A DNA stretch of 64,000 bases from Corallococcus exiguus (lineage in GTDB: Bacteria; Myxococcota; Myxococcia; Myxococcales; Myxococcaceae). Position 1 is the first letter of the stretch. The number at the start of each line of letters is the position of its first letter. The stretch lies in assembly GCF_017302975.1 (NCBI RefSeq), contig NZ_JAFIMT010000003.1; one strand, 5' to 3'. Under the pieces are notes generated by a model that was given only the letters and a program-made list of their open reading frames with translations, was not told where the DNA came from and did no database searches. The translations under genes were made by a program, and so were the position numbers. Positions 31,631 to 53,700 of this stretch are shown piece after piece.

Positions 31631-34600
31631 GTGCGCATCCGTGACCAGGGCCCGAAGGCCTCCGCCAAGGCCATGCTCCGGAAGAACTCCGGGCGCACTC
31701 CCTCGTCCTCCGCGGCCCTTCCCCGTGCTCCGGGTGTCGTTCCCCGGGGCCCTTCCTCGTCCAATCCCGCGCGTGAGCTGGCGGCGCGGCTCGCGTCGCT
31801 GAAGGGTGCGGCCCCCGCCCTCCACGGGCCCGTACTTCGTGATGCCGCTCGTGACCTGGAGCGCCGATGGAGCGACCCAGCGTGGCGGATGCTGGGCGGT
31901 CCGCGCTCGCATCTTTTCGAGCCGTGCCCGGTCCACCCGCCGGAGGTCGCGCTGCTCTCCACGCCCGGCGCCGTCGAGGCGGAGCTGGGCATCCATGGGC
32001 TCGCGCCACAGCCGAACACCGGGCTCGCGCAGGCGGCTGGCGCGTCCCAGCCCGCGACCCTGGCGCAGCAGGAGGAGGATGCTCGACGGCGTGATGCGGC
32101 GCGCATGGACGTCCTGCCTCTGGGCTCCGCTGAGCAACTCGGAGACACCGCCGCGCGGCTCGCCGAGGCCCGTGCTTCAGACCTCGAACCCACCACGGGC
32201 ACCGCGGAGTCGGAAGCGGCGGGACTCGGGGGCAGCACTTCTCCCGCGCCCGAAGCCATTACAGCGACCACTGTCGATGCGCCGAGCGCGGGCGGCGAGC
32301 TGGCAGCAACTGAGCAAGCTCCCGCGCCCGCCTCCATTCCCACGGGGACCGCTCCCGGCGGCATGGACGACGCCGCGCGCATCGACACGCTGGTGTCCGC
32401 GCTTTCGAGCCAGAGCGATGTCCACATCGTCGTCCGTCAGGCTTCCCCTGGCGCAGGGCCCCAGGAGTCTCCTTCCCTCCAGACGGAGGCCTCGGTCGAC
32501 ACGGGTCCCAAGGTGCCCGTGCCTCCAGCCGCGATGGAGTGGCAGAAGGAGCTGGCCTCGGCTCATGCGCAGGGCGTCCAAGGCATCAAGCACGGTCTCG
32601 AAACCGCTCCGGATCCGACGGGTGCCGTCGCGGCGGTGGAGCCCCCTGCCAGCCTTCCCGCGCCGCCTCCTGCTCCGGCGGCACCTGTCACGGCGGGGCC
32701 CATCCCCGCAGCGCCAGCGGTGGGCGCGGACGCGGATCCGGTCGCCGCATGGAAGGGCCGCATCGCCAGCAGCACGGCGCAGGTCCCGGAGCCCCAGCTT
32801 CCTCCCGCGCCCCGCTACACGTTCAAGATCACCCAGGCCGCCGTGGACCCCAACGCGGTCCGCGCCGCGCGCCTCAAGCAACTGGAGGACGAAGGCAAGA
32901 AGGCCATCACCCCGGCGAAGCAGCCGAAGGACCTTCCAGCCATCCCGGACGATCCCACCGGCAAGGCCTCCTCGCTGGTGGATGCGAAGTGCGAGCGGAA
33001 GCTGGAGGTCAAGGAAGCCAAACTCCCCGACCTGCAGAAGAGCCCGCTGGGCCACGTGCCGGAGATTGGCGCGCAGCTCGTGCGCGACGACGGCGGGCAC
33101 ATGCTCATCAAGGGCCCGCTCGGCGACCTCGTCTACAAGCCCGGCGGCCCCAAGCCCACCGACCCGGAGAAGCTCAAGGACTGGACGCGCCTCCAGAAGA
33201 AGATCACCGCCGAGGCCGACAAGCAGAAGAAGGCGAAGGTCCAGCCCAAGGAACCCGCGAAGGGCATCACCGTCCTCGAACAGGCCGCCCCCGCGCCCAT
33301 CAACGTCCCCGACTTCGCTCGCGTGGACATTGGCGACGTGCTGGCCCGGCTGCTCGCCGCTCCGGACAAGTACGCGGACGCCTCCGTCCAGAAGGCCCGC
33401 GAGGCCTATGTCCCGGGCGGCCTGGATGCGTCCTGGGGCGTTGCTCTCATCACCGCGGAACGTCCCATCTTCGCCGCGGAGCTCCAGCGCGTCGCGGACG
33501 CCGCGCAGATCAAGAAGGCGGACCTGGACGCGAAGGTGGAGGCCCGCCGAAAGCAACTGGTGGACTCGCACGCCGCCACCACCGGCACGCTCAGCAAGGC
33601 CCACGAGGACGCGAAGAAGAGCCTGGAGGAGGGCGGCAAGTCGTTCGCTGATTCCCTGTCGCGCATGCGCGCCTCGCTCGACGCGCAGTCCGAGGCCAAG
33701 GCCGCCGCCATCAAGGGCGGCGTCGACCTGACCGAGGCCCGGCGCAAACGCGACGCGCTCATCGCCGCGGTCGACACCAAGGTGAGCAGCTGGGTCGTCC
33801 GGTACGACCAGAACGGCAAGCGCTTCAAGGAAGCCTTCGCGAAGGCCGCGAGCGACCAGATGCACGCCTACGAGCTCGCCGCGCTCCAGGACGAGTGTGA
33901 GCTCAAGAAGGACGCCGGCGATGATCCGGTGAAGCTCAAGGCCGCCACGGAGGCGTACCGGCCCACCAAGAAGTGGATGGACGACCGCCGCAAGGAGATT
34001 GGCGCCGTCGTCACGAAGGCGAAGCGCGACATCGACCAGAGCGTGGAGCGCTATCAGCAGGAGCTGCGCGACGCGGGCAAGGAGGCCCGGGAGGTCATCC
34101 GCGACTGGCACGCGAAGCAGATCGGCTACGAGCGCGGCTTCTGGGACCGGCTGCTCGGGTGGATCATCGACTGGCTGGCCGCCGCCCACGACGAGAGCCG
34201 CGCTTGGGAGACCGCTCGCGCGGCGGAGAACAAGACGTCGTTGGATCAGAACATGTTGTTCCTCGCGGAGGTGCGCCTGCGCCAGGGCGAGGAGCTGGAC
34301 GCGGAGACCATCAAGGGAAACAACGCCCTCAGCGAGGAGCAGAAGGCCATCCTGCTCTCCTACTACGGCAAGGGTGGCAAGGACGCGGTGCAGGCGCTCG
34401 CGGAGGGCCTGGCCGTGCGCATCTCCGGCCAGCGGCGCAAGCCGCTCATGGAGGCCCTGGAGAAGGAGCTGCTCGCGTCCACCGACCTGGAGCGGCTCAA
34501 GACCGTCGTCGACCAGCAGGAGCCCCTCTTCAGCAACCGCGCTCGCAACATCTCCCTCAAGGTCTGGGAGGGAGTGGACCAGTGGGGCACGGACGAGAAG

Positions 34601-37600
34601 AAGATCTTCGACGCGCTCGCCAACCTCAACCCGCTCCAGGGCCACTACATCGAGGTCCTCTACGAGAAGGAGCACGGCCAGAACCTGCGCGAGCGGCTCA
34701 AGAGCGAGCTGGACGACTTCTTCAGCACCACCACGCATGACTGGGACAAGGCGGAAGCGCTGCTCTCCGGCAACGCCTCCAAGGCCGCCGCCGTCGAGCT
34801 GAACGAAGCCATGGAGGGCGCCTGGTTCGGCCTCGGCTGGGGCACGGACGAGGCCGCCATCCTCACCCTGCTTCGCGGCAAGACGCCGGAGCAGATTGAA
34901 GCCATCAAGAAGGCCTACCAGCAGAAGTACGGCAAGGAGCTCGTCGCCCAGATGGACGACGAGCTGCGCAGCGGCGCGCTCAAGACGCACGACGTGGACG
35001 AGATGCACGCCCTGGTGGAGGGCCGCACCGAGGACGCGCGCGCCATCGAGATGGACCGCGCCATGCGCGGCGGGTGGTTCTTCGGCCTGGGCACCGACCG
35101 AAAGGCCATGGAGGGCGTCTACGACCGCATCCGCAAGGAGACGGAGGCCGACGCCCAGCAGTACGGCTGGGACACCAAGACATTCCGCGCGGAGCTGCTC
35201 AAGCGCAACCAGGCCATCGACGCGTCGTATGAGAAGCAATACGGCACGGATTGGACCGAGCGCACCGCGGGCGAGAGCGCGCTCAGCGCCGCGTTCCACG
35301 ACGAGATGAAGGGCGAGGACCTCAAGCTCATCGAGGGCCTGCGCGACGACAAGGGACTCCAGGTGGATGCCGCGCGCATCCGCATCGAGCACACCAGCGT
35401 CTTCTACGCGGACGACAAGATCATCCGCGACGCCATGTCCGCGCAGGGCAGGCGGCAGATCGCCGACGCGCGCCGAGATGGCTACCTGGACATCCAGGAG
35501 CGGATGGACATCGAGCGCACGCTGGACGAGGCGAAGGTCAAGCCCGCCAGCGAGGGCCCGCTCACGGAGGAGGACCGCCGCAAGGGCCGCATCAGTGAAT
35601 TGGAGTTCCTGGAGAAGTGGAGCCCTGAGAAGGTCCAGGCCCGCCTCGCGAAGGAACGCAAGGAGGTGGACGTCAAGGCGAAGGCCCAGGCCCAGGCCGA
35701 TGCCCCCGCGAACATGAAGGCGCTGGCGGCCGAGTACGACAGCGCCTACGTGGAGGGCACGCACCTTCAGGCGAGCTTCGAGCAGGCCGTCCTGATGGAC
35801 ACGTCCGGCGCGGACCGGGACGCCGTCGCGGCGATGCTGACGAAGGGCTACCTCACCGACGCGGAGATCGTTCAGTACGCCGTGCAGGGCGTGGGCACGG
35901 ACGAGGACGCGCTCAAGGAGGTCTTCGCCGGGAAGACGAAGGCGGAGATCCAAGCCATGGCCGAGGAGTGGGCCAAGGACCACCCCGCCGACCCTGGCGA
36001 CACGCGCACGCCCTTCGAGCGCTTCCGCGCGCGCATCGACGAGGAGCTGAGCGGACGCGAGGATTTCGACATCCTCGACATGGTGGACTACGGCGAGCCC
36101 GTCACGCCCCGGGAGAAGGCGGACCGGGCCTGGCGCCGGGTGCACTTCGAGGCGAGCTCCACCAACAGCCTGGCGTCGTCGGAGTACCAGCTGGTGCTGG
36201 ACCAGGCGTCCGCGCTCGACGCCGAGGTGAGCGCGCTGGAGCTGCACGAGCGGATGCGCCCCAAGCCCGGGGACAAGAACTACACCGTCGACGGGCTGCG
36301 CAAGTGGCAGGACGATTGGGAGAAGAAGTCCGAGCGCGTGCAGCGCCAGGGTGATTACGCCGACGAGTCGGTGCAGATGCACCGCGAGCAGGTGGACTTC
36401 ATCACCGACCGGCTGGTGATGGTCCTCACCGCGGTGGTGATGGCGGTGGTGATCATCATCGGCGTCATCGTCAGCATCTTCGCTCCGCCCGTGGGCGCGG
36501 GGTTCTGGGCCGCGTTCGGCGCGTTCATGGCCAGCACGCCGGTGCTGGTGGGCACGGCGGTGGCGACGGCCGCGGTGACGATGCTGACCAAGGCCGCCAT
36601 GAAGGGCAGCGCCTACGGTTGGGAGGAGGCGGCCGTCGACGCGGGCGTGGGCGCGGTGGACGCCCTCACCGCCGCGGCCACCGCCGGCATGGGCACGAAG
36701 CTGCTCAAGCTGGGGTTCCTGGCGCGCATGGCGGAGGAAGGCGGGGTGATGGCCCGCGTGGCGGCGCACGGCCTGGCCCAGGGCGCCGAAGGCCTGGTGC
36801 AGTCCGCGCCCTCCGCGTTCCTGGGCAACGTCCTCAACGACGAGAACTACAAGGGCGGCAACGCGCTCTTCAACGTGCTGGCCGGCACCGTGATGCAGGC
36901 GGCGCCGGGCGCGGTGATGGCCGGGGCCTTCGGCGCGCTGGGTGGCATCTCCAAGCCCCATGTCCCGCCGCGCACCCAGGACCTGCTCCACTTCCGGGGC
37001 ACGCCCAAGGAGCGGCTGACCCTCTTCAAGAAGTGGAAGGCGGAGAACCCCGCCGGGAACATGAAGGAGTTCCTGCGCGAGTTCGACGAGGGCCTGCTCA
37101 AGCAGATGTCCGGCGACTTCGACCGGCAGCAGCTCCAGCGCGCCATGCGCAAGGAGCTGCTTGAGCACATCCCGCCCGCGCAGCGCAAGGCGTTCGCAAA
37201 CACGCCCATCGAGCTGATCTCCGAGGTGGACTTCGAAGCCCTCACCGGCAGCAAGTCCGCGCAGGCCGTCGCGATGTTCCGGCGCGGCAAGCCCACCATC
37301 ATCGTCAAGGCGGGCGCGGACCTGTCCGACCTGGGCGAGGAGGGCCTGCACCTGCTCCAGCGCCACGACAAGGCCACGCGCGACCTGGTCAAGGCCCTGG
37401 ACGAACGGGCGCTGCGGCACTGGGACAAGCTGCCCATCGAGAAGCAGTTCGAGCTCTATCGCAAGAAGCTGCTCCTGGAGATCGACGCGCAGGAGTCGCT
37501 GCTCACGTCGCTGGAGGGCAAGCGCGGCGTGTCCATGGACCCGGAGGAGGCGACCCGCCGCATCCGGCAGGGAAAGAAGACGCTGGAGAACCTGCGCCAG

Positions 37601-39709
37601 CGGATGAAGGAGGTGGATGCGTTCACGCCCCTCGACATGGCGGAGTTCGGCCAGGGCGTGCGCTCGAAGCCGCAGTACCTGAATGAGCCTCCACGGCTGT
37701 TCAGCAAGAAGGAACCGCCCGGCACTCCGCCGACTTCGGAGGCGGAGGGGGCCAGGCAGCTGGAGATGGAATTCACTCCGGCGAAGCCACCAGCGCCGGA
37801 GGTTCCGACGCCAAAACAGCTGGAGATGGGGTTCGCCGCGGCGAAGCCACCGCAGGTGGTCGTTCCGGAGACGAAGCCGCCGGCGGTCAAGACGCGCGGA
37901 GGTGGGAAGAAGAAGGCCCCGGTGCTCACCGTGACGGACACGGAGCCAGTCATCCGGCAGTCCGGCCGGCCCAACAACGTATGGCCCAACACCGTGCTCC
38001 ACGGCGACCACCCGGAGGTGGGTCCGTTCTCCAAGGGGGGGCCTGAGCTGGATGATCCGTACATCAAGAGCGCACCGCGCCAGGTGTTCGACGACGCGCA
38101 GCGTGCGCGCACCACGCTGGATCTGGATCCGTCGGACACGGTGGCGCAGATCGGCCCCGCGTGGCAGGAGGTCAAGTACCGCCCCAAGGAGCTCCGCTAC
38201 TACAAGCTGGTGGAGGTGACGCGCGCCAGCGGTGAGAAGGAATACATCGAGCTCATCCTGTCCAAGCGCTCCGGCAACCGCTGGGAGCCGCGCGGCTACG
38301 GCGCCACCGAGGCGGGCGAGGTGGTGGAGAAGCAGAAGTCCCGGGCGTTCACGGAGGCGCTGCTCGGCGAACGGATGGGGCCGACGGAGCGATTCCGGCG
38401 GCTGGACTTCAAGCCCAGGGGCGAGGAGCAAGGCAGCGGCATCGACGAAATCATCGTCGAGTTCGACCACGCCGCGGATCCGACGAGCGCGAAGCTCCAC
38501 CTGGTCGAGGTGAAGGGCGGAAAGCACGCCCCCAGGCTCAAGGACTTCACGGCGGTGGGAGAGAACCTCCGCAAGAACCTGGACGACCTGCAAGCGCAGT
38601 TGTCGGACCTGGCCTGGACCCGGGCGAGAGGCCTGGGGCCGGCGCACCTGGAGGCGCTGACCAAGGCCATCGACGAGTGGCGGATCTCCATCGAGCTGCG
38701 CGTGGGGCCCATCACCCCCATGCCTCCGCCGGGCTGGGAGCTCGTCGACCGCGTCGAACGCATCGCGGACGCGTGGCGCAAGATGTCCCTGGTCCGGGAG
38801 GTCATGCCCCACGGTTCGGCCCCCCGCGCGGAACTCGATGCCCTGATGGTCGTCTTCCGGGACGAGCTGAAGAAGGGCCGCGTCGGGGCCACGCTGAAGG
38901 TGCTGAAGAAGGTGGAGGCGGCGCTCAAGGGCACGAAGCGCAAGCCAGGCCTGCTGGCCCAGTACAACATCGACCCCAAACAGCTGAAGGGGCTCATCCA
39001 CAGCCTGGACCCGAACGTGAAGCCGGGGGAGATCGCCCGGATCATCGAACCGTTCGAGACCGCGAAGCGCATTCGCACGATAGGTCCCACCGGCAACGTG
39101 CTGGGCTGGGGGGACTTCGACATCACCGTCTCGCGCAGCTGGAGCAGCCGCCGGTTCAAGCGCTTCGAGCTGGCGCAGATGCGGGACCTGCAAGCGGGGC
39201 TGGAGGACATCCCGGAGTTGGACCCTTCGACGTTCAGCACGCTGTCGCTCCGGGACCGGCAGCAGGCCCTCAAGAAGTCGGTGGGCGCGGCCATGGACGC
39301 GATGGGCATCCCCCGGTCGCGCCGTCCACAAGTCCAATTCCAGAACCTGCCGGCCGGGGACTACGGCTGGATGGAATGGGACTTCAACGTCACGCACCAG
39401 GGCCGGCTCGCGCCCGTGAGCCGGCGTGGCGTCATCGTCATCAACGAGAACCTGGACGTGGGCGACGCGGTGGGCACCGCCGTCCACGAGTCGCGTCACT
39501 ACTATCAGGCGTATCAGGCCTACCAGTACTCGATAGGCCGACAGTCGCATCCGTTCTCACGCCGGTGGTGGCGCAACCTGCCTGGCTCCGGCGGCCACTA
39601 CTACGGGCCGGGAGACCCCCGGTACTTCCGGCAGCCCATTGAAACGGACGCGGAGAGCTTCGGCCGCCGCGTCATCGATCTCTTGCCGCCCCGCTGGCCT
39701 CCTCCATGA
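31631..39709 (+). CDS. Giant multidomain protein (2,692 aa): acidic N-terminal region, four annexin-like repeats, hydrophobic multi-TM block, PD-(D/E)xK-like motif, C-terminal HExxH
   Basis: GTG start 32 nt after the ATPase stop; GC3 near 100% in this frame. Annexin-like repeats (GLGWGTDEAAILTLL..QIEAIKKAYQQKYGKEL; GGWFFGLGTDRKAMEGVY; GVGTDEDALKEVFAGKTKAEIQ). Hydrophobic block (VMVLTAVVMAVVIIIGVIVSIF.. through ..AGAFGALGG). GIDEIIVEFD..LHLVEVKGG (D..ExK). AVHESRHYY (HExxH). Confidence 0.75.
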   Translation: MRIRDQGPKASAKAMLRKNSGRTPSSSAALPRAPGVVPRGPSSSNPARELAARLASLKGAAPALHGPVLRDAARDLERRWSDPAWRMLGGPRSHLFEPCPVHPPEVALLSTPGAVEAELGIHGLAPQPNTGLAQAAGASQPATLAQQEEDARRRDAARMDVLPLGSAEQLGDTAARLAEARASDLEPTTGTAESEAAGLGGSTSPAPEAITATTVDAPSAGGELAATEQAPAPASIPTGTAPGGMDDAARIDTLVSALSSQSDVHIVVRQASPGAGPQESPSLQTEASVDTGPKVPVPPAAMEWQKELASAHAQGVQGIKHGLETAPDPTGAVAAVEPPASLPAPPPAPAAPVTAGPIPAAPAVGADADPVAAWKGRIASSTAQVPEPQLPPAPRYTFKITQAAVDPNAVRAARLKQLEDEGKKAITPAKQPKDLPAIPDDPTGKASSLVDAKCERKLEVKEAKLPDLQKSPLGHVPEIGAQLVRDDGGHMLIKGPLGDLVYKPGGPKPTDPEKLKDWTRLQKKITAEADKQKKAKVQPKEPAKGITVLEQAAPAPINVPDFARVDIGDVLARLLAAPDKYADASVQKAREAYVPGGLDASWGVALITAERPIFAAELQRVADAAQIKKADLDAKVEARRKQLVDSHAATTGTLSKAHEDAKKSLEEGGKSFADSLSRMRASLDAQSEAKAAAIKGGVDLTEARRKRDALIAAVDTKVSSWVVRYDQNGKRFKEAFAKAASDQMHAYELAALQDECELKKDAGDDPVKLKAATEAYRPTKKWMDDRRKEIGAVVTKAKRDIDQSVERYQQELRDAGKEAREVIRDWHAKQIGYERGFWDRLLGWIIDWLAAAHDESRAWETARAAENKTSLDQNMLFLAEVRLRQGEELDAETIKGNNALSEEQKAILLSYYGKGGKDAVQALAEGLAVRISGQRRKPLMEALEKELLASTDLERLKTVVDQQEPLFSNRARNISLKVWEGVDQWGTDEKKIFDALANLNPLQGHYIEVLYEKEHGQNLRERLKSELDDFFSTTTHDWDKAEALLSGNASKAAAVELNEAMEGAWFGLGWGTDEAAILTLLRGKTPEQIEAIKKAYQQKYGKELVAQMDDELRSGALKTHDVDEMHALVEGRTEDARAIEMDRAMRGGWFFGLGTDRKAMEGVYDRIRKETEADAQQYGWDTKTFRAELLKRNQAIDASYEKQYGTDWTERTAGESALSAAFHDEMKGEDLKLIEGLRDDKGLQVDAARIRIEHTSVFYADDKIIRDAMSAQGRRQIADARRDGYLDIQERMDIERTLDEAKVKPASEGPLTEEDRRKGRISELEFLEKWSPEKVQARLAKERKEVDVKAKAQAQADAPANMKALAAEYDSAYVEGTHLQASFEQAVLMDTSGADRDAVAAMLTKGYLTDAEIVQYAVQGVGTDEDALKEVFAGKTKAEIQAMAEEWAKDHPADPGDTRTPFERFRARIDEELSGREDFDILDMVDYGEPVTPREKADRAWRRVHFEASSTNSLASSEYQLVLDQASALDAEVSALELHERMRPKPGDKNYTVDGLRKWQDDWEKKSERVQRQGDYADESVQMHREQVDFITDRLVMVLTAVVMAVVIIIGVIVSIFAPPVGAGFWAAFGAFMASTPVLVGTAVATAAVTMLTKAAMKGSAYGWEEAAVDAGVGAVDALTAAATAGMGTKLLKLGFLARMAEEGGVMARVAAHGLAQGAEGLVQSAPSAFLGNVLNDENYKGGNALFNVLAGTVMQAAPGAVMAGAFGALGGISKPHVPPRTQDLLHFRGTPKERLTLFKKWKAENPAGNMKEFLREFDEGLLKQMSGDFDRQQLQRAMRKELLEHIPPAQRKAFANTPIELISEVDFEALTGSKSAQAVAMFRRGKPTIIVKAGADLSDLGEEGLHLLQRHDKATRDLVKALDERALRHWDKLPIEKQFELYRKKLLLEIDAQESLLTSLEGKRGVSMDPEEATRRIRQGKKTLENLRQRMKEVDAFTPLDMAEFGQGVRSKPQYLNEPPRLFSKKEPPGTPPTSEAEGARQLEMEFTPAKPPAPEVPTPKQLEMGFAAAKPPQVVVPETKPPAVKTRGGGKKKAPVLTVTDTEPVIRQSGRPNNVWPNTVLHGDHPEVGPFSKGGPELDDPYIKSAPRQVFDDAQRARTTLDLDPSDTVAQIGPAWQEVKYRPKELRYYKLVEVTRASGEKEYIELILSKRSGNRWEPRGYGATEAGEVVEKQKSRAFTEALLGERMGPTERFRRLDFKPRGEEQGSGIDEIIVEFDHAADPTSAKLHLVEVKGGKHAPRLKDFTAVGENLRKNLDDLQAQLSDLAWTRARGLGPAHLEALTKAIDEWRISIELRVGPITPMPPPGWELVDRVERIADAWRKMSLVREVMPHGSAPRAELDALMVVFRDELKKGRVGATLKVLKKVEAALKGTKRKPGLLAQYNIDPKQLKGLIHSLDPNVKPGEIARIIEPFETAKRIRTIGPTGNVLGWGDFDITVSRSWSSRRFKRFELAQMRDLQAGLEDIPELDPSTFSTLSLRDRQQALKKSVGAAMDAMGIPRSRRPQVQFQNLPAGDYGWMEWDFNVTHQGRLAPVSRRGVIVINENLDVGDAVGTAVHESRHYYQAYQAYQYSIGRQSHPFSRRWWRNLPGSGGHYYGPGDPRYFRQPIETDAESFGRRVIDLLPPRWPPP

Positions 39710-40261: not shown

Positions 40262-41032
40262 ATGGCTGGAATCCCCGTGAACGTTCCAGGCACCTGGGCC
40301 GGGCTCTTCTCCTCCGAGTGGGGAGAGGACACCCACGCGCGCGAGCTCATGAAGCGCTTCTCGCCCATCGCGCTGACGAAGGCGAACACGCCCGTTCAAT
40401 ACCTGCGGACGCTGGCGGATGTGCTCGCGTCACTCATCGTGTTGACGGGAGCCGAGGAGGCCCGCGCGGCGGCCGCGCCCCTGGTGCCGCAGTGTGCGGC
40501 CGGAATCGAGCAGGCCGGGGGGTTCTTCGACTCGGTGGATCCGCCGCGAGTCGCCCTGCAGGTGCTGTCCTTCGTGAACGCGGCGGAAACGTGCGGGGCC
40601 GCGCAGGGGCTGGTGCAGGCGTCGCCCGCGAAGGCGTGGCTGGAGGCACTGGCGAAGAAGGTGAAGAAGCTGGACGACGCGTTGCTCTTTCGCTGTGGGC
40701 TGGTGGCGCTCTGTCTGGGGGAACCGGACCTGGCGGCGAAACTGGTGGGAGGCGGGAAGCTTCCGGCGACGCTCACGCCCGGGGAGCAGTTCGGCTTCAA
40801 CGTCCAGGGCTTCGTGCGCTACCTGGCGACGGCGATGAAGGCTGGTGCTCCCTCGGAGGCCGTACGGCCCGCGTGGGAGTCCTTCGTGGAGGGCTTTCCG
40901 AAGATCAAGGCCGCGGAGCAGGTCTCGTGGAGTGACCTGCTTTGGGCGGCTCGGGCGTACTTCGTGGGCGTGGAGAGGCGGCCGGTGGCGCGGGTGGGTG
41001 AGTCGCTGCATGCACTCGTGAAACCGGCCTGA
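40262..41032 (+). CDS. Hypothetical protein
   Basis: 256 aa, coding-like GC3, 16 nt after the upstream stop; no recognisable motif. Confidence 0.5.
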   Translation: MAGIPVNVPGTWAGLFSSEWGEDTHARELMKRFSPIALTKANTPVQYLRTLADVLASLIVLTGAEEARAAAAPLVPQCAAGIEQAGGFFDSVDPPRVALQVLSFVNAAETCGAAQGLVQASPAKAWLEALAKKVKKLDDALLFRCGLVALCLGEPDLAAKLVGGGKLPATLTPGEQFGFNVQGFVRYLATAMKAGAPSEAVRPAWESFVEGFPKIKAAEQVSWSDLLWAARAYFVGVERRPVARVGESLHALVKPA

Positions 41033-42546
41033 TGCGCTCCCCTGCCCTTGTCGCCCGGCCGGAGGTTTCTTTCGAGGTGATGGACCGGGTGCTGTCCGCG
41101 CTGGGCTGGTTCCTCCAGTCCGAAAGCCAGACGCCTCCGCTCATCCCTGGTGAGCCGGAGTCCGCGGTGTATGTGAAGCGCGGGACGGACTCGGAGATCC
41201 ATTACACGTTCAACCCGGTGCTCCGGCTGCGGGTTCTTGATTTCTCCGGACCTGACGCCGTGGGGGAATGGATGGCCGTGCGCAAGGCGGTGCCGGTGAT
41301 GGAGGCTCCGGCGCTCGCGGCGCTGCTGGCGTCGTCGGAGACGCGGGAGGTTCTGCTGGGGTTGCTGGCCACGGAGGCGCTACGGGAGCGCTCGTCGATG
41401 GAGCGCGTGGCGGCGCTGCGCTTCCATCCGGAGTTCAGCGTGTCGCGGACCGCGGAGCGCGTGCTGGCGTCGCTGGTGCCGGATGGGACGGAGGAGGCGT
41501 TCGCGAGACTGAAAGCGGAGAAGGAGGCGCACCCGGACCGCTCCGTGCTGTTCGCGCACCTGCCGGGGGAGGAGCAGCGGCGGCAGGTGTTGCGCTGGCT
41601 CATCCATGATCAGACGGCGTCGAATCCGGACGTCGACGCGGTGCTGCGCTCCGCGCTGGTGGACGCGGACGCGGAGGTGCGGGTGACGGCGGTGATGGCG
41701 GCGGCCCGGCTCCAGGCGAGGGAGGTGCTGCCGGCGCTGCGCGAAGCTCGGATGCCCATGTCGACGCGGGAGGGCGCGGACCCGAGGGACCGGCAGTTCT
41801 ATTCGAACCTGCGGGACCTGGTGGCCCATGTGCTCGCGGGCCGGCCGCTGCCTCCGGAGGGTTCACCGAAACGCGAGCGGATGGCTCCGCTGCTGCGCGC
41901 GCTGTCGGGTCCCGCGGATGTTCGGGACGATCCCACGCTGCTGTTGCATGCGCTCACGACGCCGGTGGATCCGGGGCCGCGTCCGGTGGGACTGCCCGAA
42001 GCGGTGGTGGAACGGGAAGGCACGTACCGGCTGCACCGCTCCGGGTTGGAGGCGCGCTGGGTGCCTCCGGTGGAGCACTGGCTGGGGACGGGGCCGACGC
42101 TGCGGCGGATGACGTCTCCGGGGTTCTTCGTTGCTCGGGTTCCCGTGAGCCGGGCCGCGGCGGCCTGGGCGATGGCAGCTTCCCAGGGGCCGGTGGGGAC
42201 TGCGGGGCCGGACGCGGAGGAACCACTGCCGTGCACTCTCGTGGAGGCAGAGGAGCTGTGCTCGGCGCTGTCACGCATTGAAGGCGTGGAGCTGCGGCTG
42301 CCTTCCGGTGAGGAATGGGAGATGGCAGCCCGTGGGCCAGATGGGCGGCTGTTCCCGTGGGGCAATTCGATGCGGGACGACGGAGCGACTCGGGCTTCGC
42401 CCTGGGGCGTGGAGAAGCTCGTGGCTTCGCTTCCGCAGTGGGCGCGGGCGGGACTGCTGTGCGGGGGACGGGAACAGCCGCTGTGCGCTTCGCACCGCGA
42501 GGTGCCGACGGGGGTGGGCGCCTTGCGGTGGGTGCTGGCCTCCTGA
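41032..42546 (+). CDS. HEAT-repeat protein with C-terminal FGE-sulfatase (formylglycine-generating-enzyme-like) domain
   Basis: TGATG overlap with the upstream gene; HEAT/PBS-lyase-like repeats (AEVRVTAVMAAARLQAREVLPALREA); RLPSGEEWEMAARGPDGRLFPWGN matches the FGE-sulfatase core. Confidence 0.6.
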   Translation: MRSPALVARPEVSFEVMDRVLSALGWFLQSESQTPPLIPGEPESAVYVKRGTDSEIHYTFNPVLRLRVLDFSGPDAVGEWMAVRKAVPVMEAPALAALLASSETREVLLGLLATEALRERSSMERVAALRFHPEFSVSRTAERVLASLVPDGTEEAFARLKAEKEAHPDRSVLFAHLPGEEQRRQVLRWLIHDQTASNPDVDAVLRSALVDADAEVRVTAVMAAARLQAREVLPALREARMPMSTREGADPRDRQFYSNLRDLVAHVLAGRPLPPEGSPKRERMAPLLRALSGPADVRDDPTLLLHALTTPVDPGPRPVGLPEAVVEREGTYRLHRSGLEARWVPPVEHWLGTGPTLRRMTSPGFFVARVPVSRAAAAWAMAASQGPVGTAGPDAEEPLPCTLVEAEELCSALSRIEGVELRLPSGEEWEMAARGPDGRLFPWGNSMRDDGATRASPWGVEKLVASLPQWARAGLLCGGREQPLCASHREVPTGVGALRWVLAS

Positions 42547-42610
42547 AGCTGACTGGCAGTTCGTCGAGGACGCCGGGGCTGCCGCTCACGAAGCTGGGCC
42601 CCCTGGGATG

Positions 42611-42830
42611 TCGGGGAGTTTCAGGCGGGCGGCCACCTCCGGGGGCGAAGCGCCTCAAACCTGTCCGACTGTCGGACAGGTTTCCCAAGGCCGCAGCCGG
42701 CAGGTCCCCATCCTCCTGATTCGAGGAGTTTCAGGCGGGCGGCCACCTCCGGGGGCGAAGATCCTCAAACCTGTCCGACAGTCGGACAGGTTTCCCGAGG
42801 CCGCGGCCCCTGGGCCCTCTCCCCTCGGAG
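42611..42830. repeat. Tandem direct repeat (2 x about 110 bp), each unit carrying a 27-bp palindrome AAACCTGTCCGAC-N-GTCGGACAGGTTT; lies at the convergence point of two operons
   Basis: GGAGTTTCAGGCGGGCGGCCACCTCCGGGGGCGAAG is identical at 42615-42650 and 42725-42760. Palindromes at 42657-42683 and 42767-42793, with perfect 13-bp arms. Spurious ORFs translating to ..ETCPTVGQV arise from it. Confidence 0.85.
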
Positions 42831-42868
42831 CCACCAGCCACGGTCCTCGTCCGTCGAGTCGGGGCGGG

Positions 42869-43090
42869 CTACTTCTTCGGCATGCGGATGCTGGGGTTCG
42901 CCGTGACTCGGGGGGCGCTCTTCGCCTTGAAGCTGCCACCGGCCGCGGCCTTCATCGTGGGCCCCTTGGCTGTGGCTCCCAGTTGGGCCCGGGCTGTGTC
43001 CGTCTTGGGCTGCTGCGACGGCGCGATGGCCTTGTTCATGGCCGGCTTGCGGTCGGGTGTCTTCCGCGTCTGGGACGTCATTGTCTTCAT
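42869..43090 (-). CDS. Small basic protein (73 aa)
   Basis: Lys/Ala-rich; start overlaps the upstream gene stop (ATGA) in the coupled minus-strand operon. Confidence 0.4.
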   Translation of the reverse strand: MKTMTSQTRKTPDRKPAMNKAIAPSQQPKTDTARAQLGATAKGPTMKAAAGGSFKAKSAPRVTANPSIRMPKK

Positions 43091-43818
43091 GGGTTGCCTC
43101 CGGGAATGCGTCCGGCGGGGATGCCTTCCAGCTTGAGCGACACACCGGGCTGCGCTGGGACTTCCAGGTCCACCAGGCCCCCAGCGCCAGTGAGGTGCAC
43201 GTCCGGGCCGATCTCCAGACGGCAGCCCACGGCCGGACGTCCCGCGTGGTCCTGGACCAGAAGCCTGCGCCGGTCGTCGCTCACCACCACCGACGGGCGC
43301 CTCAATGTGATCTGCGCCTGCGCGATGAGCACGCAGCGCTGACCCTTCACGCTCGCTCGGACCTGGGCGCGGACCCGGGCGACTCCGGGTGTCTTGTCTT
43401 CGGGAGGTCTGGCGAGGAGCGTGGCCGTGGCCGAGGGTGGACCTGGGAGGACCGCGCCTTCCCAGACCGCTTCGAACCCTTCGTCCAATCCCACCGCCGC
43501 GAGCGACAACGGCACGCGGATGGGCTCCGCGCCCAGCCAGAGTTCGTCTGGCGCGACGATGGCCACTTCGGGCTCCAGTTGGACTTCGGCGATCCAGGAC
43601 CAGCGCTCGGTGATCAGGTCCGCGAGCCAGCCGGCTTCTTCTGGCGACATGCGTGTCAGTGCCTGCTCCACGTGCGCCTGGTCCGCCAGTCGTTGGAGCG
43701 CCGCGGCGCCGTCCTTGAACCTGGCGTTCTCCAATAGGCCGTCGAGCTGGCCCGGAAGCTGTTTCGCGAGGGAGCGCAGCAGGTGGCCCAGTCGCTGTCT
43801 TGGAGGAAGTGCGTTCAT
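43087..43818 (-). CDS. Hypothetical protein (tail-like operon)
   Basis: Start MNALPPRQ at 43818 with ATGA overlap to the upstream stop 43815; the 5' extension shown in the ORF track is not coding-like. Confidence 0.5.
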   Translation of the reverse strand: MNALPPRQRLGHLLRSLAKQLPGQLDGLLENARFKDGAAALQRLADQAHVEQALTRMSPEEAGWLADLITERWSWIAEVQLEPEVAIVAPDELWLGAEPIRVPLSLAAVGLDEGFEAVWEGAVLPGPPSATATLLARPPEDKTPGVARVRAQVRASVKGQRCVLIAQAQITLRRPSVVVSDDRRRLLVQDHAGRPAVGCRLEIGPDVHLTGAGGLVDLEVPAQPGVSLKLEGIPAGRIPGGNP

Positions 43819-48953: not shown

Positions 48954-50141
48954 TCACCCCACCGGCATGCGCTTGACGAAGCCGAAGTAGGACCAGTCCA
49001 GCATCGGCGTCATCGCCGCCCAGACATCCAGGAGCGGCCCGTACGCGGCCACCGTCATCGGGTTCACCGCCTTGAGGATCTGCGCCAGCATCGTGAAGTG
49101 GATGGCCAGCCCGTCCCCCAACACCATGGGCGAGATGGCGGTGAGGCCTCCCATCTGGCACACGCCCAGCATCGTGTTGATGGATACGTTGCCCGCCAGC
49201 GCGTCGATGGAGACAGCGTTGAGCGACGGGCCCGGCATGTCCGGCATCGCCGCGGCCACCTTCACCGCCTTGCCCGCCGCGAGGTTCACGTTGCCGCCGG
49301 ACGTGACGCCGTAGCCCCCCACCGCTGTCTCCTGCGACGCGCCGGAGACGATGCGCGTGTGGCTGCCCTGGATGCGGTCCTCGCGCGGGCCGCCGACGAT
49401 CTCCTTCAGGCCGCTGCCCCCCACCGTGCGCGAGTAGCCCGCTACGTCCACCTTCTCTGTCAGCGACCCCGTCACGTGCAGCGACACGTCCCCGCCCACG
49501 TCGCGGGTGTGGCTGCCGTCCACCGTCTCGTCCTGCGTGCCCGCCACCTCCAGGTGGTCGTCGCCGTCCACCTCCGCGGAGCGGTTGCCCTCGTTCACCG
49601 TGCGCTCGTTGCTGATGAGCCGGTCCAGCCCTTCCGCGGACAGGATGACGCGGTTGCCCTGCCGGTCGTGGATCTCCACGCGCGCGGTCTCCGGCCGGTC
49701 GTCCAGGACGATGTAGTGGCCCGTGGCGGACTTGAGCATCCGCACGCCCGGCACCGCGGACTGGGGCGGATAGTCGTGCTTGGGAATCTCGCTGACGTCC
49801 GGGGCCACTCGCGCGGTGGAGTCCGGTTGGCCCAGGTCCGCGAGCGAGGGCTGCCCCCACCACATGCCGCTCCAGATGGGTTGGGACAGGTCTCCGCCCT
49901 CGAACTCCACCCAGACGCCCGCGCCCACGTCCGGCACCACGAAGAGGCCTTGATCCGGTCCCGCGTAGGGCGTGCACGGCATGGCCCAGCCCGTGGCCAC
50001 GTCTCCCATCAGGCGCGGCACCACGCACTGGATGCGCCCCAGGTTGAGCGGGTCCGAGACGTTCGTCACGTAGCCCCGGTACTTGCCGAAGTAGCGGCTC
50101 TCCGTGCGTTCGATGAGCTGCTGCAGCAGTTGTTCGATCAT
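48954..50141 (-). CDS. Phage baseplate spike protein, gpV/VgrG-like (OB-fold N-terminus plus beta-helical C-terminal region)
   Basis: YRGYVTNVSDPLNLGRIQCVVPRLMGDVATGWAMPCTPYAGPDQGLFVVPDVGAGVWVEFEGGDLSQPIWSGMWW parallels the P2 gpV / gp5 N-terminal OB domain; downstream repeats (xTVxxG) resemble spike beta-helix repeats. Confidence 0.6.
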   Translation of the reverse strand: MIEQLLQQLIERTESRYFGKYRGYVTNVSDPLNLGRIQCVVPRLMGDVATGWAMPCTPYAGPDQGLFVVPDVGAGVWVEFEGGDLSQPIWSGMWWGQPSLADLGQPDSTARVAPDVSEIPKHDYPPQSAVPGVRMLKSATGHYIVLDDRPETARVEIHDRQGNRVILSAEGLDRLISNERTVNEGNRSAEVDGDDHLEVAGTQDETVDGSHTRDVGGDVSLHVTGSLTEKVDVAGYSRTVGGSGLKEIVGGPREDRIQGSHTRIVSGASQETAVGGYGVTSGGNVNLAAGKAVKVAAAMPDMPGPSLNAVSIDALAGNVSINTMLGVCQMGGLTAISPMVLGDGLAIHFTMLAQILKAVNPMTVAAYGPLLDVWAAMTPMLDWSYFGFVKRMPVG

Positions 50142-50350
50142 CGCGCGCTCCCCAGGTCGTCGTCCTCGTCGTACTGGCGCACGCCGGAGACGTCCGACAG
50201 GTTGATGTAGACGGGTGTGGCGCCATCCGGCCCGGTGAGGTGGACGACGTCGTCGATGAGCTCCACCACCAGGCCCACGTACACCTGGCCCAACGTGGTG
50301 AAGAGGTAGCAGCGCTGCCCCATGCTGGCTTCGAGCAGCTTGCGCATCAC
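50138..50350 (-). CDS. Small protein (70 aa), tail-like operon
   Basis: ATGA overlaps at both ends (50350/50347 and 50141/50138) support translation. Confidence 0.4.
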   Translation of the reverse strand: MMRKLLEASMGQRCYLFTTLGQVYVGLVVELIDDVVHLTGPDGATPVYINLSDVSGVRQYDEDDDLGSAR

Positions 50351-50691
50351 TCCTCCAGCTTCTGCACCAGCCGCGTGGCCAGCTTCACGCGCGTGTCCAC
50401 CCAGACGCCCACGTCGCGCTGACGCTCGGAGGCGAGCCTGCGGCGCGCGGCGCGAACCAGGTCCTGGAGCGTCACGGGCACCGTGGGCACCGGCGGCAGT
50501 CGGGAGATGCGCACGTCCAGCGCCCGGAGCACGGAGGTGTCCAGGTCCAGCTTCGCGCGCGTGCCGGCCAGGTTCTCCAGCGTCGCGGCCTTCGCGTCGG
50601 GCGCGTCCGGCGTGGCGGAGAGGGAGACCTCGGGCAGCGCCGTGCGCTGGAGGGCGACACGGCCACTGAGGGCGAAGGGGTCGGGCATGGG
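50347..50691 (-). CDS. Small protein (about 115 aa) immediately after the fibre-like gene; position analogous to a fibre-assembly chaperone
   Basis: Start MPDPFAL at 50691, 28 nt after the giant-gene stop 50720; the upstream ORF-track extension overlaps the giant gene. Confidence 0.4.
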   Translation of the reverse strand, partial: PMPDPFALSGRVALQRTALPEVSLSATPDAPDAKAATLENLAGTRAKLDLDTSVLRALDVRISRLPPVPTVPVTLQDLVRAARRRLASERQRDVGVWVDTRVKLATRLVQKLEE

Positions 50692-50719: not shown

Positions 50720-53700
50720 CTACGGGTTGAGCTCCACCACGGCGTCGGCTTCCTGGACGTGCACACCGGAGGTGGTCGCGTTGCCGACGGCCGCCACGCG
50801 CGAGCCGCCCAGGATGATGACGGAGTGGGCATACGGATCCGGCACCGGCTCCGGCGGGAGGGGCCGGATGCCCGCGTCCTGCACCGGGATGGGGCCGGTG
50901 GTGCCGCCCGTGTAGAACGAGTCCGCCAGCACCTCGTGCAGCACGGAGACGTTGAGGATGCTCTCCTTCACCGTGGACGCCGCCGAGTCGATGCCGAGCA
51001 CGCTCTTGTCCACCAACTGGAGGGCCTTCTTCGGGTCGCCATCCGCCGCGGTCAGCACGGAGCGCACCTGGCCCTGCACGTCCTCGGGCTTGTCCGCGTG
51101 CATCGCGACGCGGTCCACCAGGTCCCGCAGCGCGCTCGTGGGCGAGTCGTCCTTGGTCACCGCGATGCCATAGAGCGTCCGGGCCGCCATGCTCACGTCC
51201 ATGGTCGCGGGCAGCTTCGAGCGGACGTCCTGCATCGTGGTGTTGTCCAGCACGACCTTGGCGGGGATCTCCGCCCGGGCCTGGGGCGGGAGGGGCGTGG
51301 GTTGGAAGACGAGCTCCGCGAGCAGCGTGGAGAAGGCATCGCTCGCCACGTCGCGGCGGCGCTGGAGTCCGCCCAGGAGCAGCTCCTGGTCCAGGGGCAC
51401 GCCCAGCGTGGAGCCTCCGCCCACGGGTATCTGGAGCGTCAGCCTGTCCGAAGGCATCAGCCACTGGGGACGTACCACCGGCGGGGGCGGCGTCACCGTC
51501 TCCGCTCCCAGCACCACGTTGCCGGTGAAGGTCACCGGCGCTTTCTCCACGCGCAGGACGACGACGTTCACCGCGTCCAGGCACTGGCACCGGTTGCCGC
51601 TGAAGACGGTGGAGTCCGCGCGGCGCAGGTACACCGCGCCCACTCCGCCCTCGCTGCGCAGCTCGTTGCCGGACACGGCGGCGGAGATGACCGCGCCGCC
51701 GTTGCCCAGCAGGAGCAGCGCAGGGCCTCGCGCGGTGATGTCGTTGCCCTCCACCTGCACGCCCCGCTTCGCCTTCACCACCGGCTTCGGGAGGATGGGG
51801 ATGGGCCTGACGAGGAAGTCCACCAGCGCGGGCTGCACCAGCGCCGTCGTCCCCGTGAGGTAGCGCGAGGCCGCCGTGCTGGCGCTCAAGGTGGGTGCGA
51901 AGTCCGCGGCCGTCACCGCGAGCGCGCGGTTGAGCACCGGCCCCGTGGCGAACTTCTGCTTCAACGAACCCAGCTGCACCAGGTCCTCCACGCGAGGCAC
52001 CGACGCGAGCGTGGCGATGGAGGACGGCGAGGAATTGCCGGCGACCGTGCGGCCATCCGTGCCCGGTTTGGGCACCGGGTCCGTGGCGAGGAAGGGCACG
52101 CGCGACAGCTTCGCCACCAGGTCCACAGGCAGCGTGTCGGTGACGACGAGGACGCCCGCGCCTCCACCACCGCCGCCCGCGTGGCGCACGGTGTTGCCGC
52201 GCACCACCGTCTCGCCTCGCCAGTCGATGGCCACCTCGTGGAGCACCGCCTGCGGTAGCGAGTTGCCGCTCTCCAGGAAGACGTTGCCCTTCACCACCAG
52301 TTCGCCGGAGCCCACGAAGGAGGCCACCGCCTGGCCCAGGCCGGGCTCGCCCGCGGTGGGCAGGCCCGCGCATGCGAAGAGGTGGTTGTCGGAGACCACC
52401 GTCACGGACAGGTCCGGCCGCAGCCGCAAGCCCGACACCGCGCAGCCCTCCAGTCGGTTGCCGTCCACATCCAGCAGCGAGCCTGGATCCGTGGGCGCCT
52501 CCGTCAGCAGGTGCCCCGCCGCGCCCAGGGCGGTGATGCCGGTGACGGTGTCGCGCACGGTGTTGTCCGCCAGCCGCACGCGGCCCTGCACGCCGGACAC
52601 GAAGAGGCCGTCCGCGGGCAACGGGAAGGTGTCGAAGAGGGGGTCCACCAGGTCGCCGGGGTCCGGGGCCTCGCCGCGCGCCAGTTGCTCCAGCGACTTG
52701 CGCAGCATGTCCAGGATGGCGTCCAGTTCCTGCATGCCGGTGACGACGGCGACGAGCGACGCGGAGACCTTGTCGGAGCGCTGGCGCAGGTACTCCTGGA
52801 GCCGCGCGACTCGCGATGCGTCGTCCTCGGCGGGATCCAGGGCCTGCTCCACGGCGCGCAGCAGGACCGCGGCGGCGTCCAGCTCGGCCGTCACCGTGCT
52901 GGATTTGGCGACAGCCTCCGCGGCGGTGGTCGCGGGCTCGTCCACCAGGAGGTGCAGGGCCTGGCGCGAGGGCACGCCGCCGTTGCCGCTGGTGAGCGCG
53001 GTGATGGCGTCGCTCACTCGCTGGAGCGCCAGCGTGCGGAGCCTCCCCTGGATGCCCGCGATGTCGAGCACGCGGTCGTACTGGGAGAGGTAGAGCTGCA
53101 ACGAGCCGCTGAGCACCGGCCCTGGTGCCATGCCGCGCACGGCCAGCACCAGCGCGCCCAGGGCGGAGACCCAGCGCTCCAGCGGCTCCGCCTTCGGCGT
53201 CACGGGCGGTAGGGGCATGGGCAGCACGTCCAGCGTCTGCACACGGATGCGGTCCAGGAGACTCCGGGCGATGGCCACCTGCTCCAGGCGCTTCTGCGGC
53301 TGGGCGATGGCGTCGAGCACCGCCTGGTGCGCCTGCAACGAAAGCGCGGACAGCTCCGCGTCGCCGCTCACCAGTTCGCCCAGCTGCCCCACCGCGGTGC
53401 CGAAGGCGCGCAGCTGCTTCTCCACTGTGTCGTCGGATTCCGTGACGAGGCCCGCCGCCTGCCGGTCCAGGTTCGTGGCGTACAGGCCGATGGTGGCGGT
53501 GAGCCCCTGCGCCGCGATGCGCGTGCCGTCCTCCGGCGCGACGTCCGACGGGGGCAGCACGCCGGTGGTGAAGTCCAGCACCTGCTTGAGCGTGGCGCGC
53601 ATGCGGTCCACCACCGGCTGCATCTTGCCGCCGGTGCGCTCCACGTCGCGGTAGTCCGCCTCCACCTGCGAGGCCAACGCGGGGTGGAGCTCCTGGAGTT

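Follow-up and report, generated by a model that had tools for sequence, protein, structure and literature searches.

Palindromes in a contractile-injection-like cluster are copies of a genus-wide Corallococcus repeat whose core may be an operator of FadR-like regulators

The 64,000-nucleotide stretch of DNA that we analysed (hereafter the window) carries two adjacent copies of a perfect palindrome where two operons converge and a third copy inside a tail-like operon, raising the question of whether these palindromes control the genes that they adjoin or whether they belong to something more widespread. The sequence and Tandem Repeats Finder confirmed that two ~110-bp units each contain a 27-bp palindrome with perfect 13-bp arms, as stated in a preliminary description of this locus: copy 1 reads AAACCTGTCCGAC-T-GTCGGACAGGTTT and copy 2 reads AAACCTGTCCGAC-A-GTCGGACAGGTTT, both being of the type with CCTG...CAGG arms (type I), as opposed to the CTGG...CCAG arms of type II. 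These units do lie at the operon convergence point, in a 322-bp gap between the stop codons of a plus-strand and a minus-strand gene (Table 1). The third copy was also found as described, as a 21-bp palindrome, CCTGTCCGAC-T-GTCGGACAGG, with 10-bp arms that contain no mismatch and with AAA on its left side only. It had been placed between a baseplate-J-like and a gpI-like gene: the gap is there (244 bp) and the gene downstream has a Tail_P2_I match, but the J-like ORF, which is cut by the window end, has no Pfam match at E ≤ 0.01. When searching the window for CTGTCCGAC-N-GTCGGACAG with up to 3 mismatches tolerated, exactly 3 sites were found versus 0.13 expected, and none of 100 shuffled controls had as many.

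Table 1. Positions in the window of the three palindromes, of the repeat units and gaps that contain them and of the flanking genes
Feature	Coordinates	Strand	Basis or remark
Convergent intergenic gap, 322 bp, with two repeat units	42547-42868		between stop at 42546 (+ gene) and stop at 42869 (- gene)
Tandem repeat, period 110 bp, 1.8 copies, 93% identical	42611-42808		Tandem Repeats Finder (93% matches)
Repeat unit 1, ~85 bp (left flank, core, right flank)	42624-42709	+	blastn, 80-83% identity over 80-86 bp to copies in blocks L065, L100, L005 and L115
Core palindrome copy 1, type I, centre T	42657-42683		sequence; RNA hairpin -23 kcal/mol, z = -5.3
Repeat unit 2	42734-42803	+	second blastn match to the family copies matched by unit 1
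Core palindrome copy 2, type I, centre base flipped to A	42767-42793		sequence; -22.9 kcal/mol
Gap of 244 bp separating two - strand tail-like genes	62095-62338		ORF and gene calls
Core palindrome copy 3 (perfect 21-mer at 62200-62220)	62197-62223		sequence; orthologous copy in C. interemptor AB047A (L105)
FGE-sulfatase/HEAT protein gene, 504 aa, flanking the gap; anchor for orthologous loci	41032-42546	+	Pfam; orthologs 77-95% identical in Corallococcus species
73-aa gene, last of the - strand tail-like operon	42869-43090	-	also called as a gene in the three orthologous loci
Gene downstream of copy 3: Tail_P2_I-like N-terminus and Kelch repeats	58324-62094	-	Pfam
Gene upstream of copy 3, truncated at the window end	62339-64000	-	ORF list, gene calls

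Positions 29000-64000 of the window correspond to a contractile-injection-like cluster, the members of which include an annexin-repeat protein of 2692 aa that ends in a DUF6782 metallopeptidase-like part (31631-39709), a VgrG-like spike (48954-50384) and a beta-helix/DUF6519 protein of ~2500 aa (50720-58327); in orthologous loci, an AAA+ ATPase with a WHD domain is found just upstream. Other tandem repeats, located at 1529-2167 (108-111 bp, 2.5-5 copies, 69-82% identity), are unrelated to the palindrome family. A sigma-70 promoter scan of 42000-43500 gave no match, and no Rfam family was matched anywhere in the window at the gathering score.

A scan of one genome per species detected the 21-mer CCTGTCCGAC-N-GTCGGACAGG in at least 120 blocks of 8 kb, almost all of them from Corallococcus. 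Among the matches listed, the source species were C. exercitus, C. coralloides, C. interemptor, C. carmarthensis, C. praedator, C. terminator, C. sicarius and C. llansteffanensis, while the few listed blocks from outside Corallococcus came from Hyalangium, Archangium and metagenome-assembled genomes. Individual genomes contain many copies: at least 58 exact and at least 114 recognisable ones in C. exercitus SDU142 (38 blocks), and at least 25 exact and at least 68 recognisable ones in C. coralloides KYC2213 (15 blocks). About 90% of the exact copies (151/165) are located outside gene calls, as made by a simple caller that uses third-codon-position G+C. The palindromes of the window are therefore copies of a genus-wide interspersed palindromic repeat, found in Corallococcus and in some related Myxococcaceae. 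A viral-contig scan returned no palindrome copy. Literature searches gave nothing relevant on REP elements in Myxococcus or on palindromic repeats or GntR expansion in Corallococcus, and since there was no full-text match for either 17-mer of the palindrome and no matching Rfam family, this repeat family appears to be undescribed so far.

It is correct that three copies within 20 kb are not expected by chance, but as the family is common genome-wide, this argument is uninformative on the tail-like operon. A regulatory element dedicated to the tail-like (eCIS-type) cluster would account for three copies lying less than 20 kb apart at operon boundaries and for the conservation of both sites in some other species, but it is extremely unlikely, considering that the palindrome adjoins unrelated genes throughout several genomes and that the C. 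interemptor convergence point lacks it. The repeat has no special tie to this cluster. The locus-specific terminator or attenuator that had been proposed first thus finds no support from a dispersed repeat present in so many blocks, and the genome scan gave the very outcome that had been named as speaking against a locus-tied role, a generic REP element unrelated to this locus; the other proposal, a REP/MITE-like repeat, was right in kind, since the element is a dispersed, multi-copy, intergenic Corallococcus repeat. Altogether, the interpretation given in the preliminary description is partly supported, and the palindromes at this locus are best seen as background genome furniture with a drifting copy number rather than as a dedicated control of the contractile-injection-like operon.

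Repeat units occur singly or in minisatellite arrays, the latter emerging once mismatches are tolerated. The longest arrays reach 18.2 units of 69 bp (C. macrosporus) and ~17 units (L083), and such minisatellites of 17-18 units fill convergent gaps (positions 4229-5476 of L134, from C. macrosporus, and 5652-6811 of L083); many units of these two arrays are hybrids that combine a left arm of type I with a right arm of type II. A CRISPR array was considered for such structures and rejected, because the whole 69-bp unit is repeated, including the segments between palindromes (75-85% matches), and no Cas family was found among 119 genes that flank palindromes. Neighbouring palindromes are most often 65-74 bp apart, with smaller peaks near 50, 90 and 138 bp, and the 110-bp spacing of the window pair is rare within the family. 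Conservation is highest at the centre of the palindrome, where the middle base is A or T only, while flank similarity is weak, restricted to subfamilies of copies that have flanks in common, and gone within ~30 bp on each side; the left flank of unit 1, GCGGCCACCTCC...CTCAAA, is one that is also found in the 69-bp array consensus of C. macrosporus. The repeat unit is ~70-85 bp long, with a core, AACCTGTCCGAC-W-GTCGGACAGGTT, made of two GTC-S-GAC boxes and with loosely conserved flanks, and the 110-bp tandem pair of the window is one local amplification of this family unit.

In the metagenome-assembled genome CAVYSY (16 loci, for example at 5524 of L009 and at 5520 of L015), the core is found inside an extended palindrome of ~70 bp, CCTCCCGGGCGC...AAAAA-core-TTTTT...GCGCCCGGGAGG. 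A scan of metagenomes with the type-II palindrome gave 3 short contigs with a related element and 2 chance matches in coding sequence, none of these matches being accompanied by a regulator gene. On the contigs L129, L131 and L132 (sample Ga0307405), the type-II palindrome is part of a ~90-bp element with well-conserved asymmetric flanks, which suggests a related repeat family in another myxobacterium.

Comparisons between species showed how the copies of the window evolve. The window proteins have 95% identical orthologs in C. exiguus, which places the window within Corallococcus. In C. exiguus, the convergence point contains a single unit in a 209-bp gap versus two units in the window, indicating that the second window unit is lineage-specific. 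Since the two window units differ at 6/88 positions, including the centre base, this second unit is nevertheless not very recent. C. exercitus also has a single unit at the convergence point, with the core AACTGGTCCGAC-A-GTCGGACCAGTT, and the four substitutions that separate it from the window core correspond to two fully compensated pairs. At the convergence point of C. interemptor CP102579, no palindrome was found and an extra 527-aa gene is present instead; the stop codons of this gene (L123, 11805-13388, plus strand) and of the 73-aa gene are 1 bp apart. In the gap between the J-like and I-like genes, C. interemptor AB047A contains 3 palindromes versus 1 in the window, and copy 3 has its ortholog in the one that lies closest to the J-like gene. 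The window copies are therefore found at positions that are conserved in other species, and this comparison of orthologous sites indicates that the sites are old, that core symmetry is kept and that copy number shifts by local amplification. Since copies occupy orthologous positions in species that are 84-97% identical, their turnover is slow.

Such a slow turnover argues against a classical REP or MITE, which would be selfish DNA moved by a RAYT (Y1/HUH) or another transposase encoded elsewhere in the genome and which would have no host function at the window sites. The family does look like REP/BIME elements in being clustered, intergenic and multi-copy, with many copies of a 20-40-nt palindrome, and it has subfamilies with common flanks. 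However, a tblastn search with E. coli RayT over 1.07 Mb of sampled loci detected no RAYT-like gene, its lone hit (L072, E = 0.019) being in a non-coding frame, and no transposase family was found among the 119 flanking genes. The core is a perfect palindrome without REP bulges, and its position profile contains no GTAG- or GGAG-type tetranucleotide head, the flank being (C)AAA and the arms perfect. A MITE was rejected because conservation is highest at the centre and not in terminal inverted repeats, the opposite of what a MITE would show. Considering these points, we regard purely selfish mobility as improbable.

The strongest association was found outside the window, where the palindrome accompanies regulator genes. 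Several copies found in divergent gaps have flanks in common and are separated by ~118 bp from a gene that encodes a GntR-type helix-turn-helix, and a repeated segment of ~1.1 kb comprises the palindrome, a spacer and the first ~270 codons of this gene. This segment was found in 22-23 of the 120 listed palindrome blocks, 11 of these being from C. exercitus SDU142, and GntR was the only recurrent Pfam family among the 119 palindrome-flanking genes. The regulator family forms 354 clusters at 90% identity, the best 120 of these 354 being all from Corallococcus, and a single genome can contain at least 15 paralogs; scanning metagenomes with the regulator alignment gave no relative. Seven paralogs were then picked by protein similarity alone, which avoids the bias of a palindrome-based discovery, and the palindrome was present upstream of all seven. 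Altogether, it is located 87-119 bp upstream of the annotated start codon in 29/29 examined paralogs, and across these 29 loci identity amounts to 94% in the core and 47-50% in the flanks, with proteins that diverge down to 64% identity. The palindrome is thus always found upstream of the members of this massively expanded family of FadR/GntR-type regulators. The annotated start is preceded, at a distance of ~57 bp, by a conserved block, GTCCATGTCAGACCCCTCTGGTTGGATG, at which translation could alternatively begin (MSDPSGW...).

The regulator protein matches Pfam GntR (1e-13 to 1e-14), with a weak FCD match, and it aligns with E. coli FadR over residues 8-211, covering both domains (NCBIfam and PDB sequences). 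Its AlphaFold model displays a winged helix-turn-helix and seven helices, followed by a disordered repeat-rich tail, and the best PDB fold matches of this model are a FadR-DNA complex, NanR and McbR. Judged from its sequence and its predicted fold, the palindrome-linked protein is a GntR regulator of the FadR subfamily: it combines a winged helix-turn-helix with an all-helical FCD-type domain, and the features of a putative FadR-type operator, a palindrome with GT-N3-AC near the regulator gene, were found at all 29 loci. FadR-like paralogs (for example L042 3660-5123 and P0090-P0209) have long disordered C-terminal tails with a variable number of ~20-aa repeats (..QDDALEARPCVEEHGL..), and many of them terminate in a conserved hydrophobic motif, GRWAARLWRFIA.

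In E. coli, FadR contacts DNA through R35, T44, R45, T46, T47, R49 and H65, and its sites include those of fadL (AGCTGGTCCGACC / AGCTGGTCCGACCTATACT) and fadBA (ATCTGGTACGACCAGAT) (PMC4259882). In the Corallococcus family, the residues that correspond to R45, T47 and R49 are conserved, while the R35 position is occupied by Gln, Ala, Glu, Lys or Val in most paralogs and by Arg in 34/119 clusters. Arg-type proteins were absent from the 22 paralogs found via the type-I palindrome (binomial p ~5e-4 if protein type and palindrome type were independent), and both Arg-type paralogs that were examined, P0113 and P0139 of C. macrosporus, have a symmetric type-II palindrome, AACTGGTCC.AC-N-GTCGGACCAGTT; the Glu-type P0153 of the same genome has type I. 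Symmetric arms are of these two types only: AACTG/AACTG was observed 7 times versus ~0.8 expected, whereas the AACCG arm, which is as frequent as AACTG, is never symmetric. The type-II arm AACTGGTCCGAC contains CTGGTCCGAC, which is also part of the E. coli FadR site AGCTGGTCCGACC, and the single copy at the C. exercitus convergence point is exactly type II, in a species that has Arg-type paralogs. Altogether, the palindrome variant tracks one residue of the DNA-reading head of the regulators, a pattern that would fit direct recognition by two specificity classes. Since the Arg-type paralogs may form one clade, this covariation may nevertheless correspond to a single evolutionary event.

We therefore propose, with a probability that we estimate at roughly 0.6, that the family is a dispersed and tandemly amplifying palindromic element whose core is the putative operator of the expanded FadR-like family, a link that association and covariation suggest. 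According to this model, the core would be bound by dimers of FadR-like regulators and would mediate auto- or cross-regulation at regulator genes, while the copies dispersed elsewhere, single or in arrays and including those of the window, would be additional binding sites that duplication has spread; where they lie at gene 3' ends, such sites may also block convergent transcription or terminate it, acting as roadblocks when bound or as hairpins. Several observations count against an operator. The outer half-sites are 15 bp apart versus 7 bp in the E. coli FadR operator, so that a single FadR-like dimer would be unable to contact both half-sites alike. In the CAVYSY genome, none of the 16 sampled copies adjoins a regulator gene. 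Arrays of 10-18 sites would also be unusual for a transcription-factor regulon. Finally, the copies that have no link to a regulator gene preferentially occupy convergent gaps and gene 3' ends in a hairpin- or terminator-like manner, and compensatory and G:T-type changes are equally expected for a selected hairpin.

These last two points would be accounted for by a REP-like hairpin acting as RNA or as single-stranded DNA, which, in the convergent gap, could terminate or pause transcription in both directions and shield upstream mRNA against 3' exonucleases, which could act as an intra-operon attenuator between the J-like and I-like genes, and which would be found upstream of FadR-like genes by descent only. 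The core folds into a GC-rich 12-bp stem with a 3-nt loop (-23 kcal/mol). The plus-strand hairpins of copies 1 and 2 reach -23 and -22.9 kcal/mol (z ~ -5) and copy 3 reaches -17.4 kcal/mol on the plus strand and -19.6 kcal/mol on the minus strand, so that RNA folding, which had been suggested as a check, gave stable hairpins throughout (-17.4 to -23 kcal/mol). The clusters that are not linked to a regulator lie in 27 convergent versus 13 divergent gaps, for an all-gap background of 141 to 132, and in co-directional gaps 30/37 of them are nearer the upstream stop codon (medians of 59 versus 155 bp). This 3'-end bias corresponds to classical REP-like placement, and it is the reason why a hairpin or terminator role stays a live rival. 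AAA and TTT flank the stem, these runs reaching 5 bases each in the CAVYSY genome, compensated arm changes retain 12/12 pairs (L124, L092, L027), and a centre limited to A or T fits a flip-flop inversion of the hairpin loop.

Other features of the copies fit such a hairpin poorly. The T-run located 3' of the stem is only 2-3 bases long in 235/311 arms (at least 4 bases in 20%), and a simple consensus terminator scan did not call the window hairpins. Regulator-linked clusters are found in divergent promoter regions in 12/23 cases, where a terminator has no obvious role. The frequent variant CTGTCGGAC-A-GTCGGACAG, in which a central C/G is flipped in one arm, loses a stem pair yet keeps the GTC-S-GAC box, and neither the existence of only two symmetric arm types nor the tracking of Arg and non-Arg proteins is explained by folding. 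The whole 95-105-bp unit was also considered as a long hairpin and rejected, since its flanks fold like shuffled flanks and add no hairpin to the core (mean z = -0.1 over 159 copies), although the window unit itself folds well. A hairpin whose presence at regulator genes is due to descent only is the main rival explanation, with a lower probability than the operator, and the operator and hairpin/terminator roles are compatible with each other.

If the core is indeed an operator, the lineage-specific FadR-type family, with dozens of paralogs per genome, and its putative high-affinity operator may have expanded together, the operator spreading in a REP-like manner to well over 100 intergenic sites and arrays. 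At least two matched specificities would exist (non-Arg proteins with CCTG/CAGG and Arg proteins with CTGG/CCAG), with orthologous single sites switching type between species. We put forward this joint history tentatively, as a scenario that we find somewhat less than evenly likely. Should the regulator link be true, Corallococcus would offer a tractable bacterial system for the joint amplification and diversification of a transcription-factor family and its binding site, as well as a ready-made pair of orthogonal operator/repressor specificities. The abundance of the family is in itself sufficient to affect assembly, operon prediction and VNTR strain typing in myxobacterial genomics.

Among known systems, the REP/BIME elements of enterobacteria and pseudomonads, which are associated with RAYT transposases, are also short GC-rich palindromes with many intergenic copies, often clustered, which favour gene 3' ends and convergent gaps and can sit inside an operon; REP elements are protein-binding sites (IHF, gyrase) as well as mRNA stabilisers. 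Unlike these, the Corallococcus repeat has a perfect 25-27-bp palindromic core with a 1-nt centre, no GTAG-type head and no bulges, its clusters are head-to-tail minisatellites of ~69 bp and not inverted pairs, and its recurrent neighbour is a FadR/GntR regulator gene, no RAYT having been found in the sampled loci. Mycobacterial MIRU/VNTR loci resemble it through their intergenic or intra-operon arrays of 50-100-bp units with variable copy number (here 1 versus 2 and 1 versus 3), but MIRU units have neither a perfect palindrome as their basis nor a link to a regulator family. Rho-independent bidirectional terminators similarly have, between convergent genes, a GC-rich stem that is stable and accompanied by an A-tract and a T-tract, whereas the T-tract here is 2-3 bases long and an identical sequence recurs genome-wide, including in divergent promoter regions. 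Compared with FadR operators, the outer half-sites of the Corallococcus palindrome are separated by 8 bp more, the whole site is perfectly symmetric with a length of 25-27 bp, and there are well over 100 copies per genome together with tandem arrays instead of a handful of degenerate operators. It shares with FadR operators the GT-N3-AC box of each arm and the CTGGTCCGAC of the type-II arm, and the protein linked to it has a predicted FadR fold in which R45, T47 and R49 are kept and in which a TGG arm goes with Arg at the R35 position.
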